A stretch of DNA of 64,000 nt from Dehalococcoidia bacterium (GCA_963666115.2 CAXXET010000001.1:32001-96000), one strand, 5' to 3'; positions 47,990 through 55,574 are shown, counted from the first letter of the stretch. A program made the numbers and translations. The notes: a model not told the origin generated them from the letters alone.

Positions 47990-48418
47990 CTACTCCTCCC
48001 CCCTCATTCGGAGGAGGCGTTCGCCGATGATTAGGGCCAGGACGGTGTAGAGGGCGTCCATGATTGGGAAGTAGATCAGGTGGGATGTTACGGCGTCGCC
48101 TGTTTCGCTTTCGGGGTTGAGCAGCCAGAAGTATTGCCAGAAGAAGAGCATCGTGAGGACGACTGCGGCGTAGAAGAGGCCGTGGGCGATGGCGCAGGTG
48201 TAGTTGTCCGTGTTCTCCGGGTCGAGCCGCCACTTGTGGAGGAACGTCAGGATGAGCATGATCGGCACGCCGAGCGCCATGAAGTAGTTCATGATTGTCC
48301 ACAGCGGATAGTCGGACGAGCCGTCGTGGATGAGCCCTGTGATCATGAGCAGGACGGCGACGGCAATCCCCGTGAGCACGAGATATGCCCCGATGAGGCG
48401 GGCCAGTATGATCGGCAT
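47990..48418 (-). CDS. Hypothetical membrane protein with four TM helices
   Basis: Four hydrophobic segments; AGGAGG RBS. Confidence 0.7.
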   Translation of the reverse strand: MPIILARLIGAYLVLTGIAVAVLLMITGLIHDGSSDYPLWTIMNYFMALGVPIMLILTFLHKWRLDPENTDNYTCAIAHGLFYAAVVLTMLFFWQYFWLLNPESETGDAVTSHLIYFPIMDALYTVLALIIGERLLRMRGEE

Positions 48419-48553
48419 GGGTCAACCTCCTTGTGACGCGAGCGGGCGGGCTACGGTATAGGATACGGCATTGGCGGCAGCGTTGGCAGTTGGTTGTACA
48501 ATGTAATAAAGGCGTTACAAATGCGGTTGAGGCATCACTCGGAAATGGAGAGT

Positions 48554-49808
48554 ATGCTATCGACGACAAATCCGCTGACTCATCTCCCCTACATATGGGG
48601 GGGGGGGGGGGGTAGATATCCAGCCTCCGAATCTGGCGATTCCCAGTGACTACTCGGGAGGTTACTGGCGCGCTCGCCTCGAGAATGCTACGGTCGCCGA
48701 CAGTTATGCGGCTCATCAACTGATTGGCGATCCTCTGGCCGATGCGGCCATTGCGGATATGGACGGGATGGACCACGCTGAATCGGCGATGATGCTGCGG
48801 GCTGCGATGGATAACCCCGGCGGCAGCGTTCTGCGGGATGCGCCACAAGGCGTTCAGGATCTCATCGCCTCCGTAGACGAGCCGCCGGACTGGGTAAACT
48901 ACAACGATTTTCTGCCGGGCTCGCGCATGTTCCTGCGCAACGCGCAGGTCATCCTGGCGGCGTTCGTTGGGGGAACCCTCGTGGAGGGCTTCGGGACGAA
49001 CATCAGCAAGTCGTTTTTCATCACCGGGCGGCTGCGCGACCAGGGAGTACGCCGCCTGATGCAGAATAACCGCCACATGCTGGAATCGTTTCTGCCGGGG
49101 GGACTGGCGCGAGCGGGCGACGGCCTGAAGTTGAGCCTGCGCCTGCGCCTCGTCCACGCGCAAGTGAGGAAGCTGCTGCATGAATCCGACGAGTGGGACA
49201 CGGACGCCTGGGGAGAGCCGTTGAGCGCGGCGCACCTGGGGATGGCCATCTCCGGGTTCTCAGCGCGCCTTCTCTATCACATAAAGCGTCTGGGGGCGCG
49301 GTATAACGATGAAGAGCGGCGGAGCTTCATGGCGATCTGGCGCTACACGGGCTACATCATGGGAATCCCGGAGACCATCCTCTTCAAGGATGAGGAGGAG
49401 GCGCTGGAGATTTACAGGATCGGCACGATGTGCGAGCCGGAGCCTGGGCCTGAGGCCATCGTGATGGCGCACGCCCTGATCAATTCCGCGCCGCTGGTGG
49501 TCGGCATCACCGATCCACAGGAACGCCAGAAGCTGGCGAATTACGTGTTTCGCATATCACGCGCGGTCATCGGGGCGGATATGGCCGACAAGCTGCACTA
49601 TCCCAAGACGCCGATATTTGGGGTGCTGCCGCTGTTCCGGCTGCAAACCCGCTACCACAAGTTCCTGTCGCGGTGGATTCCGTGGATGGCGCAGGACGAC
49701 AATTTCACGCAGTTCATCGGGCTGTTGGAGGCGGCGAACGTGACGGAGACGGACATTCACTACCATATGCCGGATCACGTTTATTCTGAGAATTCGAGTC
49801 CCTGGTAG
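48554..49808 (+). CDS. MpaB/Lcp-like (DUF2236) heme oxygenase; 5' end put out of frame by a G16 tract
   Basis: IGDPLADA, PPDWV, RLRLVHAQVR, WGEPLS and WRY.GY.MG. The frame is open back to the G tract at 48597-48612. Confidence 0.75.
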
Positions 49809-51166
49809 GAGCGGGCCGCAAGTTCGCCGCTCCGCACGGCGGATTCCATGGTGGCGGGCCAGCCGGTTTGCGTCCAGTCTCCTGCGAGGTAGAGGCCGGG
49901 TATTGCCGTGGCCTGCGGCGGCCTTTGGGTTTGGATGCCGGGGAGGCATCGAAACGTTGCCTGCGGCTGCTTGACGACGCGAAAGTAGGTCATCGAGGCG
50001 TTGCGCGTCTCCGGCAGCGCGGCGCGAAGTTCAGCCGTGGCTAGCTCGCGCAGTTCTTCCTCCGTCATGCCCGCCTCGCGCCATGCGGCGCTAATCGACA
50101 CCAGCAAGCGCGAGTCCGAGCCGGCCGATTCCTGCATGAGCGAGCGGTTGAATACCCACTGGATCGGGCTGTCCAGGACGGTCAGGAACGGCTCATCCAT
50201 TACCGGGCGGTCGTAGCCGATATGCAGCCCGACGATGGGCGCCCATTCCAGTTGGGGGAGGCCGATGTCCGTTAAGGCAGTGTCGGCGCTCTCGTCGCGG
50301 GCCAGCAGCCTTTCGACGCCGTCCCACGGCACGGCGCTGATCACCGCGTCCGCGTCTATGGTTTCGTCGCCAAGCCTGACACCCGTGACGCGGCCATTGT
50401 GAACTCTTAGCTCTGTCACGCGGCGCCCCATGATGAACCGCCCGCCGCGCGATTCGACATACCGGCGCGCTCCGTCGCTGACCAGCGTTGACAGGCCGAC
50501 ACGCGAGTAGCCGAGGTCGGCCATTCCCTTGCCTGCGAGCAGGGAGTCCTGGAATGCCATGATGCCCATGTAGGCGCTCGCGGCGTCGATGGTGTCATTG
50601 AGGATGGGCAGCGTGATGAGTTCCCAGAGAGCAGCTATCGTCCTGTCGTTCTGCCCGCGCCGCATGAGCCACTCTCGAAAGGACATCGCCTCCAGCCGTT
50701 CCCGCTCTCGTTTCCTGTTCGCGCGGCGAATGCTTAACATGCCGCGTATGACGCGCAGCCGGTCCGTGAGGCTGAGATGCCGGTAGCGGAGGAGGGAGGG
50801 CAGGAGGTCGAGCGGGGCGGGAAGAAACCGCGTTGATGACAGCACGCCGCGCTTTCCGTCCCTGTTAGCGACCGTCACGCGCAGCCGCGACTGGAGGGTC
50901 GTTTGGTCGAACGCGCCGATTTTCTTGAGGAAGTCGATGTATTCGGTGCAGCAGCGGAGGAAGACGTGCTGACCGTTGTCCAGCTCCATGCCCGTTTGGG
51001 GATCGAGAAAGGAAAAGGCGCGCCCGCCCAAGTAGTTGCGGCGCTCGATCAGGGTGACGGCGATGCCGCGTTCGGCGAGGGCGCAGGCGGCGGAGAGGCC
51101 GGCAAGCCCGCCGCCGATCACCACGCAGTGGCCACGCGCTCCATTGGGACGTAACTCTGAATCCAC
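49781..51166 (-). CDS. hpnE: Hydroxysqualene dehydroxylase (FAD-dependent)
   Basis: VIGGGLAGL, LGGRA.SF, DNGQHVFL.C and LAGDWT.TGWPATMESAVRSG. True start may be a GTG at 51124 or 51121. Confidence 0.9.
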   Translation of the reverse strand: MDSELRPNGARGHCVVIGGGLAGLSAACALAERGIAVTLIERRNYLGGRAFSFLDPQTGMELDNGQHVFLRCCTEYIDFLKKIGAFDQTTLQSRLRVTVANRDGKRGVLSSTRFLPAPLDLLPSLLRYRHLSLTDRLRVIRGMLSIRRANRKRERERLEAMSFREWLMRRGQNDRTIAALWELITLPILNDTIDAASAYMGIMAFQDSLLAGKGMADLGYSRVGLSTLVSDGARRYVESRGGRFIMGRRVTELRVHNGRVTGVRLGDETIDADAVISAVPWDGVERLLARDESADTALTDIGLPQLEWAPIVGLHIGYDRPVMDEPFLTVLDSPIQWVFNRSLMQESAGSDSRLLVSISAAWREAGMTEEELRELATAELRAALPETRNASMTYFRVVKQPQATFRCLPGIQTQRPPQATAIPGLYLAGDWTQTGWPATMESAVRSGELAARSYQGLEFSE

Positions 51167-52002
51167 AGTCGCACCGCCAACCCAGTTTTCTCGCGGGTTG
51201 ACAGGCCAACCCGACCTTCAAAGACGTTGTAGCTTTTCCCTTCGATTCTATCGAGGACGCGGCCATAGAGTCCGCCGAGGACGGCGGGGAAGGCGCGGGT
51301 GCGAACGGGCAGCAGCTTGAGCAGACGCTTGCCGCGCTCGAAGTGCTCCCGCGCGCGCGCCACCTCGAACTCCATCAGGCTGCGAAACTGGTCGTTCACC
51401 GTGCCCGCCATCAGGTCTTCCTCGGTGTAGCCGAATCGCCGCAGGTCTTCCTGGGGGATGTAGATGCGGCCACGCTCGGCGTCCTCGCGGACGTCGCGCA
51501 GGATGTTGGTGAGCTGCATGGCGAGCCCCAAGTCGATTGCGTACTCGCGGGCGCGCCGGTCCTTGTAGCCCATAATCTGGATGCAAATGAGGCCCACGAC
51601 GGACGCGACGCGGTAGCAATACGCGGCCAGGTCATCAAAGGTCTCGTAACGGGAGACGGTGAGGTCCATTTCGACGCCGCGCGCGACTTCGGTGAGGTCT
51701 TCATAGGGAATGTCGTATTCGGCGGCGGCGTGGGCCAGCGCCTCGAAGACCGGCCCGTCCGGCTTCCCCTCCCGCGCGTCATCGAGCAGGGCGTCGATGC
51801 CCTGTATGCGGCGCGTTTTTTCGTCGATGGGCAGGTCGTCGTCTGATAGATCGTCGCAGAGGCGGCAGTAGGCGTAGGCGGCGTACATGGCGCGTCGTCT
51901 GCGGCGGGGCAGGGTGACGAAGGCGTAGTAGAAGTTGCCCGCCGCCTTGCGCGTGATTGCGCGGCAGTGTTCGTAGGCATCCGCCAACTGCTGGTCTGAC
52001 AT
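51118..52002 (-). CDS. hpnD: Presqualene diphosphate synthase
   Basis: NFYYAF, CRLCDDLSD, YCYRVASVVG, QLTNILRDV.ED and GRIYIP. Confidence 0.9.
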   Translation of the reverse strand: MSDQQLADAYEHCRAITRKAAGNFYYAFVTLPRRRRRAMYAAYAYCRLCDDLSDDDLPIDEKTRRIQGIDALLDDAREGKPDGPVFEALAHAAAEYDIPYEDLTEVARGVEMDLTVSRYETFDDLAAYCYRVASVVGLICIQIMGYKDRRAREYAIDLGLAMQLTNILRDVREDAERGRIYIPQEDLRRFGYTEEDLMAGTVNDQFRSLMEFEVARAREHFERGKRLLKLLPVRTRAFPAVLGGLYGRVLDRIEGKSYNVFEGRVGLSTREKTGLAVRLWIQSYVPMERVATAW

Positions 52003-52036
52003 ATGTCCGGGTGTTCCAGAACCGCCGGCGCCTGTC

Positions 52037-52921
52037 TCAAATCTTCCGCGTGAGCTTCATCTGAAGCCACGTCTTTGCGAGCAGCCACGTCTTGCGCCTC
52101 TTCGTGACCGTTGGCCGCCGAGAGAGCACGTCATAGTACTGCCTTTCGATGGCGTCCAGGACGCGGAGGCCGCCCAGGGTAAACAGCTTCACGTGCAGTT
52201 TGTAGGCGCCGTCGAGCGTGTCAACAAGGGGCAATCCCTCGTGGAACAGCAGGCGCGTTCGCTCCACCTGGAACAGGATGAGTTCTCGAAAGGCAAGCGA
52301 GCTTTCGCCGCGCGCCAGTTCCTCCTCGGTGTACTCGAACCGGCGCATATCCTCCTGCGGGATGTAGATGCGCCCTTTCTCATAGTCGCGCCTCACGTCC
52401 TGCCAGAAGTTGGCGAGTTGGAGGGCGGTGCAGGTGGCGTCGGACAGGGCGCGCCGCTCCGGGTCGTCCTTGCCGATCAACGTGAGATACAACCGGCCGA
52501 CGGGGTTTGCGGAATGGCGGCAATAGTTCAGCAGGTCGTTGTAGGTTTCGTAGCGCGTGTTGACCTGGTCCATCCGGTTGGCCTCGATAAGATCGAGGAA
52601 CGGCTGCCTCTCGATATCGAATGCGGCGATGGTGTGTTGGAGGGCCTGGAATTGCGGTTCGGCGGGCGCGCCGGAGTAGCATTGCTCCAGTTGCGCGGCC
52701 CAGTCGTCCAGCAGGGCAAGCCGATCTCCCTCCGCCTCGTCGCCGAGGTCGTCAACGCCGCGGCAGTACGCATAGACGGCGGCGACGTGGGGGAGCATGT
52801 CGCGCGGCATGAGGCGCGACACGACGGAGAAATTCTCGTAGTGCGACCGCGCAAGATCGATGCAGTCGCGGTAGGCGGGCTCCAGGGATGCCGGAATCTC
52901 CGCCGCCTCACGCGTCCGCAT
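52037..52921 (-). CDS. hpnC: Hydroxysqualene synthase HpnC
   Basis: HYENFSV.S, DDLGDE, YCRHSANPVGRL and LQLANFWQDV. Confidence 0.92.
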   Translation of the reverse strand: MRTREAAEIPASLEPAYRDCIDLARSHYENFSVVSRLMPRDMLPHVAAVYAYCRGVDDLGDEAEGDRLALLDDWAAQLEQCYSGAPAEPQFQALQHTIAAFDIERQPFLDLIEANRMDQVNTRYETYNDLLNYCRHSANPVGRLYLTLIGKDDPERRALSDATCTALQLANFWQDVRRDYEKGRIYIPQEDMRRFEYTEEELARGESSLAFRELILFQVERTRLLFHEGLPLVDTLDGAYKLHVKLFTLGGLRVLDAIERQYYDVLSRRPTVTKRRKTWLLAKTWLQMKLTRKI

Positions 52922-53448
52922 TACGCGTCCTCCTTCACCCCCATGACCTGGACGGTCAGATGGCGCGGACGCGGACGGTCAAGCTCGATGAAGAAGATCC
53001 GTTGGTACATTCCAAGCAGCAGGCGCCCGTTGATGATGGGCAGGGTTTCGCTGGTTCCCATGATGATCTGCTGGCAGTGGGCATGGCCGTTGGGTGGTTC
53101 GTCGTCGTTCATGTTGACGGTGCGAATCTCAAAGTCGTTGTGCTGGTAGCCTCCCTCGCGCGGGGCGAAATGCTCGAGGATGTGGCCGATGTCTTCAAGA
53201 AGCAGAGGTTCCATCTCATTGATGACGACGGCGGTTGTGGTGTGCGTGGAATAGACCACCACTGAGCCTTGCCGGACGCCGGTTTCTTCCACGATGTTCT
53301 GCACCCAGTCCGTCACGTCTACGAACTCAGGCGCGCGGCTCGATTGAATATCGATCGTGTACGAGTAGACCTGGTACTGGCCAGCGCCGATAAGGCCGCC
53401 TTGCTGGGCGCCGTTCACAAATGCGCGTGCTTCCATAACGTGCTCCAA
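52921..53448 (-). CDS. YjbQ/UPF0047 family protein
   Basis: HTTTAVVINE, NGHAH and LLGMYQRIFFIELD.PR.R; stop overlaps the hpnC ATG. Confidence 0.85.
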   Translation of the reverse strand: MEHVMEARAFVNGAQQGGLIGAGQYQVYSYTIDIQSSRAPEFVDVTDWVQNIVEETGVRQGSVVVYSTHTTTAVVINEMEPLLLEDIGHILEHFAPREGGYQHNDFEIRTVNMNDDEPPNGHAHCQQIIMGTSETLPIINGRLLLGMYQRIFFIELDRPRPRHLTVQVMGVKEDA

Positions 53449-53589
53449 TCATCAGGCGATGTGACTGCTTGCCATTCAAGCATACAGCGGCATGGATGAT
53501 TTTCAAAACCGTGTTATTGAAATGTCAGCTTTCCGAATCCATAATGGCCTTGTCGCCCGCCCCGCCGCCGGAGAGAGGGGGTCTACCGC

Positions 53590-54729
53590 ATGATTGAATG
53601 GCTTGGCATCGAGCACCTCTTTGAGCTTACGGGCGTGGAGGCGGTCGCGGCGTTCTTCACGCCCCTCGCCGTCTTTGCCGCGTTCTTCGTGGCGCAGCTC
53701 ATCATTCCGGGCAGGAAAGTGCCCGGCTACGTTACCGATCCCGGCACCGGCCAACCGCGCAACTATCGACTCAACGGCATCCTCGTCTTCATCCTGGCGG
53801 TCATTATCTGGGCGACGGAAATCACGGGAATGCCGCGTGACTGGTTCTACCGGTCGTCCCTCTACGCCATTGCCGGCGGCACCGTCTTCACGCTGATCAT
53901 GTCGATCGCGGCGGTCTACAGCCAGCCGGTGGGCGACATCAAGAACCCGCTGATGGCGCTGTGGGAGGGCAGGGCGCGGGAGATTTCCCTCTTTGGCGAG
54001 CGCGTCGACATCAAGATGTACTTCTACGTTGTCGGCGGCACGATGCTGGCAATCAACGCCATGTCCGGCGCGGCGTGGCACTACGACCAATTCGGGAGCG
54101 ATTTCAACCCCGGCGTCTTTCTCTACGCCGCGTTCTTCACGTTCTACGTGTTCGACTACTTCATCTGGGAGCGCGTCCAGCTCTACACCTACGACCTGAT
54201 CTACGAGCGGATGGGATTCAAGATGTTCTGGGGCGGCATCGTCATCTACGGCTGGGTCTTCATCCTGCCGCTGTGGGGGATGGCCGCGCACCCGAACCCC
54301 GGCTTCTCCACCTTCTGGACGTATGCCTGGCTCATCGGCTCCACCGCGCTCTTCCTCCTTGGCTGGAGCATCGGGCGCGGCGCGAACCTCCAGAAATACA
54401 CGTTCAAGCGGTGGCCGGACCGCAAGTTCCTGGGGATCATCCAGCCGAAGTACATCGAGGCCGGAGACCGCAAGATCCTCTACACCGGCCTCTGGGGCGT
54501 TGCCCGCCACTTCAACTACATGGGCGAGGGATTTTTGTCCTTCGCGGTCGGGCTGTCGTTCGGCCACTTTACGAACCCGTGGGCGTGGGCATACTTCGTC
54601 TTCGTCGTCTCGTTCTTCACGTGGCGGCAGCGCAGCGACGAGACGCACTGCGAAGCGAAGTACGGCGCAGACAAGTGGGCCGAATACAAATCGCGCGTCA
54701 AGTGGCGCATCATGCCCGGCATCTACTGA
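53590..54729 (+). CDS. ERG4/ERG24 (Delta14/Delta7 sterol reductase) family membrane reductase
   Basis: Y.LNG, D...ERMGF...WG, AN.QK..FK, GLWG.ARH.NY.GE and R...DE..C..KYG...W..Y...V.WRI.PGIY. Confidence 0.88.
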   Translation: MIEWLGIEHLFELTGVEAVAAFFTPLAVFAAFFVAQLIIPGRKVPGYVTDPGTGQPRNYRLNGILVFILAVIIWATEITGMPRDWFYRSSLYAIAGGTVFTLIMSIAAVYSQPVGDIKNPLMALWEGRAREISLFGERVDIKMYFYVVGGTMLAINAMSGAAWHYDQFGSDFNPGVFLYAAFFTFYVFDYFIWERVQLYTYDLIYERMGFKMFWGGIVIYGWVFILPLWGMAAHPNPGFSTFWTYAWLIGSTALFLLGWSIGRGANLQKYTFKRWPDRKFLGIIQPKYIEAGDRKILYTGLWGVARHFNYMGEGFLSFAVGLSFGHFTNPWAWAYFVFVVSFFTWRQRSDETHCEAKYGADKWAEYKSRVKWRIMPGIY

Positions 54730-54751
54730 CCGCCGGGGAGTCCCTTCCGGT

Positions 54752-55447
54752 TCAGGACGGTTGGCTGTCTTCGGACTTTATCAAGCCGCGCGCCAGCAGG
54801 CCCATATAGATGAGCCCGGAGACGGACATGGCCGCAAACACCGGCTGGAGAGCCAGTTCAAGCTCGTTTGAATGCCACGCGGCGACGAAGACAACCGCCG
54901 ACGCGACGGCCAGCGCGGCGACGATGCCGTTCAGCAGGGGAGGCAGGCGCACAGGTTCGGGATGGAAAGCGAGGCCCAGCGCCATGACAGCCGTTCCGGC
55001 GAAGCCCGCGACACTCGACGAGAAGTGCATTCCCCACACGACTCGCTGCAAGGCCACGGCGGAATTGAGCAGCCTCTCCGCCTCCGCGCCTTCGTTCTCC
55101 AGCGAGGCCACGCCATAGCCGACGATCATGTAGTCAAAGCCCCGCATCACCATCTGGATGATTAGGGCGATGGACATGGCGGTGAGGCCGAGGCGCGGGA
55201 TCGGCCCGGCGTAGCGGCGCAGGACCAGGAGGCCGTTCAGCATCAGCAGCGCGCCGAAAACGATGATGATAGGCATGGTATATGCCAGCGCCTCGTTGCG
55301 GGCCATGGCGAGGGTGAGGTCGGTGAGGCTTGTGCTGGGCACGGTGTCAATCGCGCCCCGGCCCGGCGAGAGCACGTAGGCCACCGCTATCGCAAGGGTT
55401 CCCGCTACCAGGGACCAGCCGCCCAGTTTTTTGTCCGTCACATTCAT
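54752..55447 (-). CDS. Hypothetical polytopic membrane protein
   Basis: About six hydrophobic segments; no motif recognised. Confidence 0.65.
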   Translation of the reverse strand: MNVTDKKLGGWSLVAGTLAIAVAYVLSPGRGAIDTVPSTSLTDLTLAMARNEALAYTMPIIIVFGALLMLNGLLVLRRYAGPIPRLGLTAMSIALIIQMVMRGFDYMIVGYGVASLENEGAEAERLLNSAVALQRVVWGMHFSSSVAGFAGTAVMALGLAFHPEPVRLPPLLNGIVAALAVASAVVFVAAWHSNELELALQPVFAAMSVSGLIYMGLLARGLIKSEDSQPS

Positions 55448-55574
55448 GTCGCTGCCATTCGTGAGTCGTCGTGCCGCTATCCTAGCAGAACGCCGGCGCG
55501 TCCGAGAATTGACAGCCGCCGCCTGAATGGACATTCCGCGTTAAGTGCGTTAACATCGGCGGACATTTGCGGCC

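Follow-up and report, generated by a model that had tools for sequence, protein, structure and literature searches.

A cyclase-less squalene operon in a genus of Dehalococcoidia and its DUF2236 and ERG4/ERG24-like neighbours

The stretch analysed here (positions 47990-55447 of a 64,000-nucleotide window from a Dehalococcoidia genome) carries the squalene-synthesis genes hpnC, hpnD and hpnE in an operon with yjbQ, and this operon is flanked by a gene of the DUF2236 (MpaB/Lcp) family on one side and by a gene of the ERG4/ERG24 reductase family on the other. A preliminary description, made from the window alone, had joined all three into one route in which squalene is cleaved and then reduced. 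Our analysis points instead to a composite of three units: a squalene operon that the genus appears to have kept after losing its cyclase, a DUF2236 gene whose link to that operon is real but optional, and an ERG24-like gene that would be an accessory with a history of its own. Taken as a whole, we consider this three-unit explanation moderately probable.

The stretch and its source genome, that of a small bacterium of symbiont type (2,067,757 bases in 9 contigs, rated 100% complete), were screened by combining an open reading frame (ORF) list with Pfam and NCBIfam profiles, scores being compared with the curated cut-offs. Identifiers beginning with G, C and L denote genomes, contigs and loci, respectively, G000 being the source genome. 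In the HpnCDE scheme, farnesyl diphosphate is converted to presqualene diphosphate by HpnD, then to hydroxysqualene by HpnC and finally to squalene by HpnE. Across the whole genome, neither the squalene-hopene cyclase domains (SQHop_cyclase_C, PF13243, and SQHop_cyclase_N, PF13249) nor the squalene epoxidase domain had a single match. The preliminary description had seen no cyclase or epoxidase in the window and had proposed to look for them in the rest of the genome; that search has now been run, it returned nothing, and the statement extends to the genome as a whole. P450s are represented by a single GPP34 fusion, which among the NCBIfam models comes closest to terpene P450s (69-84 bits, all below their cut-offs).

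The cyclase-less state is shared by nearly the whole genus. Among its 22 species genomes (G000 included), HpnE scores over the cut-off in all 22 and a cyclase domain is present in two, on a small contig in G009 and as a weak type of 194 bits in G022. An even sample of the class (151 genomes) contains 46 genomes with HpnE, 38 of them outside the genus, and a strong cyclase match was found in 30 of these 38, mostly 3-6 kb from hpnE. Because of this prevalence the hopanoid-type cluster is the usual state in the class, and the cyclase-less state is, judging from the profile matches, a derived one, in which the genus lost the cyclase and kept the squalene half of a hopanoid-type cluster. A second type of cyclase-family protein, scoring ~180-200 bits and lying in frames of ~650 aa or 1100-1600 aa, was observed in G022 (C1:65056-66024), G090, G096, G097, G121, G131 and others, and is distinct from the 420-500-bit cyclases found beside hpnCDE.

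Given that the genus has no cyclase, squalene would be made without conversion to a hopanoid or a sterol, and the product of the yjbQ-hpnC-hpnD-hpnE operon would remain in the membrane. Since hpnCDE persists in genomes without DUF2236, or with a broken copy of it (see below), the operon is kept for squalene itself, which is thus needed in its own right in this genus. Passages of PMC9907078 describe accumulated squalene as tolerated and able by itself to alter membranes, and passages of PMC7306690 propose that some bacteria import squalene from their neighbours. Two further observations concern the squalene enzymes. A second HpnE-like FAD amine oxidase is encoded at G000:C4:137210-138424 (L115:1711-2925) and matches only the unnamed model PRK07233, at 460 bits, a comparison made for the G000 copy; second weak HpnE matches (~80-97 bits, model positions 1-402) occur in most genomes of the genus and in the sister-genus genomes G001-G003. 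In two cyclase-less genomes of other phyla, a 719-aa protein combines a NUDIX domain with two SQS_PSY domains (HpnC and HpnD as a single chain) and adjoins hpnE (L107:10647-12806, L111:7165-9324).

The DUF2236 family is very large: at least 2,319 proteins match at E <= 1e-20 among 8,000 candidates scored, and species genomes yielded at least 498 loci. We examined 96 loci (19 plus 77 new), 85 of them outside the genus. Unbiased clustering of the neighbouring genes placed an MMPL-family resistance-nodulation-division (RND) transporter first: in 57 of the 85 loci it immediately precedes DUF2236 on the same strand. The Chloroflexota copies match the MmpL3 model best, yet stay below its cut-off. 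The orthologue in G000 lies on contig C7 with no DUF2236 gene beside it. For hpnCDE, gene calling and blastp with several query sets were used, a first tblastn pass (0/9) having been too insensitive at the ~28% identity of HpnE. True hpnCDE genes were found within 10 kb of DUF2236 in nine of the 85 loci, and six more such loci were recovered from the hpnE side in 13 cyclase-less genomes.

These linked loci come in varied gene orders: MMPL-DUF2236-hpnC-hpnD-hpnE on a single strand (L163, L169); dxs-ispH-x-hpnEDC divergent from MMPL-DUF2236 (L155, L172, L178); MMPL-DUF2236 convergent on ispH...ispA-hpnEDC in Acidimicrobiia (L121, L166); DUF2236 convergent on hpnEDC, similar to the window (L126, G214, G280); hpnE...hpnC-ispA-dxs-DUF2236-MMPL (L102); and dxs-DUF2236-MMPL-LolA-like-unknown-ispH-hpnEDC in Binatia and 'delta' metagenome-assembled genomes (MAGs; L105, L109, L110, L112, L113). 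By record titles, the adjacency extends over four phyla (Chloroflexota, Acidimicrobiia, Binatia and a 'delta'/Thermodesulfobacteriota group). In a quick maximum-likelihood tree built from 101 DUF2236 proteins, the distribution of hpnCDE-linked copies requires seven or more state changes, and the copy of the window falls in a clade of 12 rows nested among MMPL-linked copies from Dehalococcoidia. The preliminary description would have been undone if its genes were not linked in other genomes; for DUF2236 they are, at these seven or more tree positions, and for the ERG24-like gene they are not (see below). In 21 of the 22 genomes of the genus, no more than 3 kb separate DUF2236 from hpnE; two divergent types (~80% and ~52% identity) occupy one spot, and both stand in tandem in G009. 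In addition, 13-16 of the 85 loci (L097, L119, L126, L171, L182 and L192 among them) have a downstream signalling set composed of a HAMP histidine kinase, a response regulator-SpoIIE phosphatase, a periplasmic binding protein, a STAS protein and an RsbW-like kinase.

The adjacency follows the cyclase state. A sample conditioned on ERG24 (50 other ERG24-bearing genomes, of 71 first drawn from ERG24 loci) contains 37 genomes with HpnE, and DUF2236 lies within 10 kb of hpnE in 6/13 of those without a cyclase versus 0/24 of those with one; G029, with a 56-residue cyclase remnant interrupted by a stop (G029:C1:2945914-2946081), was counted as cyclase-less. In the class-wide sample outside the genus, the corresponding fractions are 2/8 and 0/30. 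Combined, this amounts to 8/21 versus 0/54 (Fisher p = 1.2e-5), where relatives are not independent and the number of events is nearer seven. Of ten further genomes picked for DUF2236 beside hpnCDE or a squalene synthase (SQS) gene, nine had no cyclase match and the tenth (G087) had only a 187-bit match in a 1089-aa frame. By comparison, 50 genomes with DUF2236 loci without nearby hpnCDE (a set that leaves out loci L184-L192) have a cyclase-family match in 29 cases, a strong one in 23. The tie between DUF2236 and hpnCDE that had been proposed for the window therefore holds beyond its lineage, and only in cyclase-less genomes.

Lcp and the fungal MpaB are oxygenases that use haem b in the cleavage of isoprenoid C=C bonds. 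From sequence and modelled structure, the DUF2236 protein is predicted to be a haem protein of the Lcp fold, without being an Lcp in the narrow sense. It matches the Pfam family MPAB_Lcp_cat (PF09995) at 60.7 bits (cut-off 23) and Lcp 5O1M at 2e-6 as a single sequence or 3.2e-16 with a profile of 50 sequences. Its AlphaFold model (pLDDT 79.2, pTM 0.81) was matched by Foldseek to Lcp 5O1L/5O1M (TM 0.64-0.70, E 9.5e-8), followed by t-anethole oxygenase 8S1J (TM 0.48-0.55), likewise an alkene-cleaving haem enzyme. H133 and R99 align to the haem ligand His198 and to Arg164 of Lcp and are invariant in 50 relatives, and the equivalents of Lcp Arg195 and Arg202 are also conserved. The roles of the Lcp residues, including the proximal haem ligand His198 and the proposed base Glu148, are described in passages of PMC5522427 and PMC6311187.

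Where expressed, the DUF2236 protein would have H133 as its haem b ligand and would oxygenate squalene or a compound closely derived from it, most likely by C=C cleavage, which by analogy with Lcp, MpaB and t-anethole oxygenase would turn a trisubstituted C=C bond into a ketone and an aldehyde; the product could then be moved by the MmpL exporter, encoded elsewhere in this genome. Substrate and chemistry, here as for the other enzymes of the stretch, are proposed from homology, fold and gene context. We infer that DUF2236 acts on squalene or a squalene-derived lipid as an optional side branch, and it would be at most an optional consumer of squalene.

Several observations weigh against the three-unit reading or against an obligate link of DUF2236 to hpnCDE, and they concern the genomes, the protein and the gene itself. 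The Fisher tests are uncorrected for phylogeny and, as said, the relatives are not independent. G003 (sister genus, one contig, 93% complete) has HpnE with neither a cyclase nor a PF09995 match, and the same holds for G190 and G210. In G026, the DUF2236 gene is broken by two stops (494627-495669 on C1) beside the best-scoring hpnE, and the two copies of G022 are far from hpnE. DUF2236 presence in the class sample (6/8 cyclase-less versus 4/30 cyclase-bearing genomes) may reflect habitat, since the gene is found in 46 of 50 symbiont-type genomes whatever their cyclase state. DUF2236 and hpnE are convergent in the window and thus not co-transcribed. Lcp Glu148, Lys167 and Thr168 are replaced by I82, Q102 and N103, invariant in the clade, and the reaction may accordingly be something other than C=C cleavage. 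As for the gene, its frame is open from 48582 and the 55 codons upstream of its first in-frame start encode the conserved N-terminus of the relatives; the matching ATG (48595), however, is one base out of frame across a run of 16 G, and use of the next start (48759) would remove these 55 conserved residues. Finally, the ERG24-like gene holds the same chromosomal neighbourhood as hpnCDE throughout the genus (at a distance of 0 or ~12-13 kb), and a loose functional tie between them keeps some probability on that account.

The reading frame suggests that the DUF2236 gene is here either switched off or mis-assembled at the G16 run, that is, the run is either an assembly error or a slipped-strand on/off switch. 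G/C runs of at least 15 occur only three times in the 2.07-Mb genome, and in two of 11 relatives' loci checked, L085 and L086, this end of the gene (upstream of 10001) likewise has a run, of C16 or C17. The four contigs from sequencing runs that were compared belong to relatives and none of them spans 48508-48581; in the bridging relative contig X1, 53 other letters replace 48505-48626, and X3, with a sponge metagenome label, provides short pieces only, one of them 171 bases without a difference. The habitat estimated by sequencing-run share (best 0.24, 'marine metagenome', then 0.22) is too little to name a host, and no RNA data set was listed for the 7.5-kb stretch.

Many of the same facts favour a plainer alternative, in which squalene is the end product, as a membrane lipid or a community good, and DUF2236 and MmpL act on other hydrophobic compounds such as host terpenoids, carotenoids or quinones. 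The hpnCDE genes are retained in G003, G190 and G210, which have no DUF2236, and beside the broken copy of G026, 76 of the 85 DUF2236 loci outside the genus have no hpnCDE nearby, the two genes converge, and the tolerance of squalene and its proposed uptake, cited above, would suit such a role. Against it, chance adjacency of DUF2236 and hpnE within 10 kb is expected in ~1% of genomes, yet it occurs at no fewer than seven tree positions and in varied gene orders, including the same-strand row of L163 and L169 and the dxs-DUF2236-MMPL-...-ispH-hpnEDC order of L113, and it is missing from all 54 cyclase-bearing genomes. We regard this alternative as rather unlikely. A broader extension of the three-unit reading would be that MmpL, DUF2236 and hpnCDE, often with dxs, ispH or ispA, constitute a cyclase-independent pathway that oxidises squalene, probably to carbonyl-ended 'apo-squalenoid' lipids, and exports the products; it would occur in at least four phyla of symbiont-type communities and replace hopanoids after cyclase loss, and in this genus the oxygenase might be switched by the homopolymer at its start. 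In this full form the proposal is speculative and we think it unlikely to be right in all its parts.

For the ERG24-like gene, a pattern scan found 441 relatives, and the locus analysis considered the best 80 of them (69-94% identity), with record titles naming Dehalococcoidia, Nitrospinota, Gemmatimonadota, Binatia, Latescibacterota, Thermodesulfobacteriota, Rhodospirillales, Nitrospira and Acidobacteriota. At 69-77% identity the gene stands alone in many phyla. Four of the 80 loci have hpnCDE beside the gene; their identity is at least 93%, which places them all within the genus, and a squalene/phytoene synthase profile nearby identifies the identical four. Neighbour clustering of the 80 loci revealed no conserved partner, the largest real cluster covering 12 of them; larger clusters were discarded, as they consisted of overlapping-frame ORFs inside the ERG24-like gene itself. 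Of the 22 genus genomes, 14 have an intact copy and two a remnant with stops (G018:C1:273640-274044; G026:C1:613156-613572), and no copy was found in the other six. Seven of the intact copies abut yjbQ and seven lie ~15 kb from hpnE, ~12-13 kb being inserted between yjbQ and the ERG24-like gene in seven genomes. In the 50 ERG24-bearing genomes of the conditioned sample, the 37 HpnE genes are always far from ERG24, a cyclase-family match is found in 31 and neither in seven. Based on this distribution, we infer that the ERG24-like gene is an independent, horizontally spread accessory gene and a separate unit of the stretch.

This leaves little room for the route first proposed, in which HpnCDE, the DUF2236 oxygenase and the ERG24-like reductase would cleave and then reduce squalene to acyclic or degraded terpenoids. 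The three do lie within 6 kb of each other in 7 of the 22 genus genomes, G000 being one of the seven, no cyclase competes for the squalene, and in the conditioned sample ERG24 co-occurs with HpnE (37/50) and DUF2236 (46/50), though far apart. However, the linkage of ERG24 with squalene-synthase genes is limited to those four loci of one genus, eight of the 22 genus genomes lack the gene or carry a broken copy whereas all 22 retain hpnE, seven ERG24-bearing genomes have no HpnE and no cyclase, and ERG24 was never seen in the DUF2236-MMPL-hpnCDE clusters of other phyla. In G026 both neighbours are broken and hpnE is intact. The single route is thus already largely refuted by the linkage data, and we consider it very unlikely. 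The same holds, even more so, for a flow of squalene into C30 carotenoids through CrtN-type desaturases, as in Planctomycetes, which is a known fate of HpnCDE squalene according to passages of PMC9907078 and might recruit the second HpnE-like oxidase of contig C4, but which we rejected as highly improbable, as no CrtI/CrtN family protein (TIGR02734) is over the cut-off anywhere in the genome (best 44 bits versus 238) and that oxidase matches only PRK07233.

Returning to the three-unit reading, the ERG24-like protein is probably an active NADPH-dependent reductase: its residues 28-379 align to residues 76-427 of MaSR1 (4QUV) at 2.1e-30, and the C-terminal motifs, on the NADPH side, are kept and align with those of MaSR1. 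It may reduce C=C bonds, with NADPH, in sterols that the cell cannot make, alongside a sterol-methyltransferase-like gene and a GPP34-P450/RND module elsewhere in the genome. The former is a Sterol_MT_C domain at G000:C4:362511-362696 (54.6 bits versus 21.7) in a 353-aa open frame. The latter, on G000 contig C6 (345000-364000, L196), contains a short-chain dehydrogenase/reductase (SDR), a FAD oxidase and the GPP34-P450 fusion; facing them are an MMPL/Patched/sterol-sensing RND transporter, a KshA-like Rieske oxygenase, a major facilitator superfamily (MFS) transporter and an LppX-type lipoprotein. Ten of the 80 ERG24 loci have, no more than 8 kb from the gene, two or more components of a module made up of GPP34-P450 fusion, FAD oxidase and KshA-like Rieske protein. 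Given that the genome has no synthesis of the sterol nucleus and three kinds of sterol-type tailoring genes, the ERG24-like enzyme most likely works on the sterols of others, and would thus be an editor of foreign sterols. The preliminary description's other option, a remodelling of host sterols, survives in part, as it fits the ERG24-like gene. Passages of Kelly et al. 2022 (PMC9531527) report that ERG24 is enriched in MAGs of sponge symbionts, was transferred horizontally and sometimes forms a doublet with a squalene synthase gene. Beside the sterol-type module, L196:15676-17022 encodes a eukaryote-like protein of 448 aa with HTTM and vitamin-K-dependent gamma-carboxylase lumenal domains.

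As regards novelty, HpnCDE, cyclase-less carriers of HpnCDE and ERG24 genes in sponge symbionts are already in print. To our knowledge, many bacteria keep HpnCDE without a cyclase, and apart from C30 carotenoids the use of their squalene is unexplained. We found no literature linking DUF2236/MpaB with squalene synthesis, MMPL or HpnN, supplements and subscription journals being outside the search. The recurrent DUF2236-MmpL-hpnCDE clusters, present only in cyclase-less genomes, thereby offer a concrete candidate enzyme for the fate of squalene; if true, this would give the very large DUF2236 family of bacteria its first proposed physiological role other than rubber degradation. The position of the ERG24-like gene next to squalene genes would be a matter of local history, which calls for caution, and the gene belongs with the sterol-type genes already reported from sponge symbionts, genes that bear on how sponge sterol biomarkers are read.

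The features of the stretch are listed in Table 1. ORF calls, Pfam and NCBIfam bore out the eight genes of the preliminary description and their positions, including the membrane proteins without a family at both ends, and the 28-bp convergent overlap and the divergent ERG24-like gene follow from the coordinates.

Table 1. Genes and sequence features of the stretch, numbered from the first letter of the window
Feature	Position	Strand	Evidence and remarks
142-aa membrane protein, ~4 helices	47990-48418	-	no Pfam or NCBIfam family
DUF2236 (MpaB/Lcp family) gene, predicted haem oxygenase	open frame 48582-49808	+	PF09995 2.8e-16
G16 homopolymer	48597-48612	+	directly after ATG 48595-48597, seen in the sequence
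First in-frame ATG/GTG/TTG of DUF2236	48759	+	gives 349 aa (48759-49808); relatives 391-407 aa
Overlap of DUF2236 gene and hpnE	49781-49808		convergent, 28 bp
hpnE, hydroxysqualene dehydroxylase	49781-51166	-	TIGR03467, 433.3 bits (cut-off 283.05)
hpnD, presqualene diphosphate synthase	51118-52002	-	best match TIGR03465, 276.2 bits, slightly below the cut-off of 278.6 (NCBIfam); SQS_PSY 9.4e-79
hpnC, hydroxysqualene synthase	52037-52921	-	TIGR03464, 328 bits (cut-off 250.45)
yjbQ (UPF0047), first gene of the operon	52921-53448	-	PF01894 2.4e-33; TIGR00149 113 bits
Divergent intergenic region, 141 bp	53449-53589		promoter-like hexamers on both strands: 53517-53545 (+), 53528-53499 (-), 53506-53479 (-); consensus scan only
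ERG4/ERG24-family membrane reductase	53590-54729	+	PF01222 3.2e-33, 115.6 bits (cut-off 27)
260-aa membrane protein, possibly DUF4386-like	54752-55534	-	no Pfam match

The genes yjbQ, hpnC, hpnD and hpnE form one tight row on the minus strand, the stop of yjbQ and the start of hpnC sharing one base, and the yjbQ-hpnC linkage is limited to this genus and close relatives. The 260-aa membrane protein, syntenic within the genus only, has an Atlas lead (0.92) to clusters with DUF4386 in 19-24% of members. The nearest Atlas clusters of the 142-aa protein are unnamed Chloroflexota families (score 0.92-0.95), and its homologues lie near DUF2236 in 5 of the 85 loci outside the genus; they were observed at 45-52% identity in other Dehalococcoidia lineages (L158, L163, L169, L176), and homologues of 36-38% identity lie ~4 kb from the ERG24-like gene in L014 and L016-L018. 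Beyond the stretch the genes are unrelated (GDPD, ThyX, a PfkB kinase, a methyltransferase and a carboxylate-reductase-like A-T-R protein). Between 56560 and 60400 of the window, a class I methyltransferase and a 999-aa AMP-binding/carrier/NAD_binding_4 protein with the architecture of a carboxylic acid reductase are syntenic in the genus, with no hpnCDE link seen elsewhere.

In comparison with known systems, the operon resembles the hpn clusters of hopanoid producers in its three enzymes, their order and strand, and in genes that overlap or are closely spaced; it differs in that yjbQ is joined into the operon, DUF2236 occupies the cyclase side, and neither a squalene-hopene nor an oxidosqualene cyclase is encoded anywhere in the genome. 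The transporter partner of DUF2236 is, like HpnN of the hopanoid clusters, an MMPL-family RND protein, and its Binatia-type copy has a sterol-sensing domain and a LolA-like neighbour, but it reaches 55-91 bits against an HpnN cut-off of 752. The ERG24-like protein lacks the first ~75 model positions relative to MaSR1, the delta14-sterol reductase of a methanotroph, and, in comparison with MaSR1 and ERG24/TM7SF2 of sponge symbionts, it is not part of a cyclase-CYP51-ERG24 cluster and belongs to a genome without a cyclase. Finally, the DUF2236 protein shares with Lcp and MpaB the PF09995 family, the predicted fold, the proximal His and the equivalents of Arg164, Arg195 and Arg202, whereas its identity to Lcp is 14-15%, with Ile, Gln and Asn in place of Glu148, Lys167 and Thr168, and, in contrast to both enzymes, its gene has an MmpL transporter as partner, joined in cyclase-less genomes by hpnCDE, dxs and ispH.

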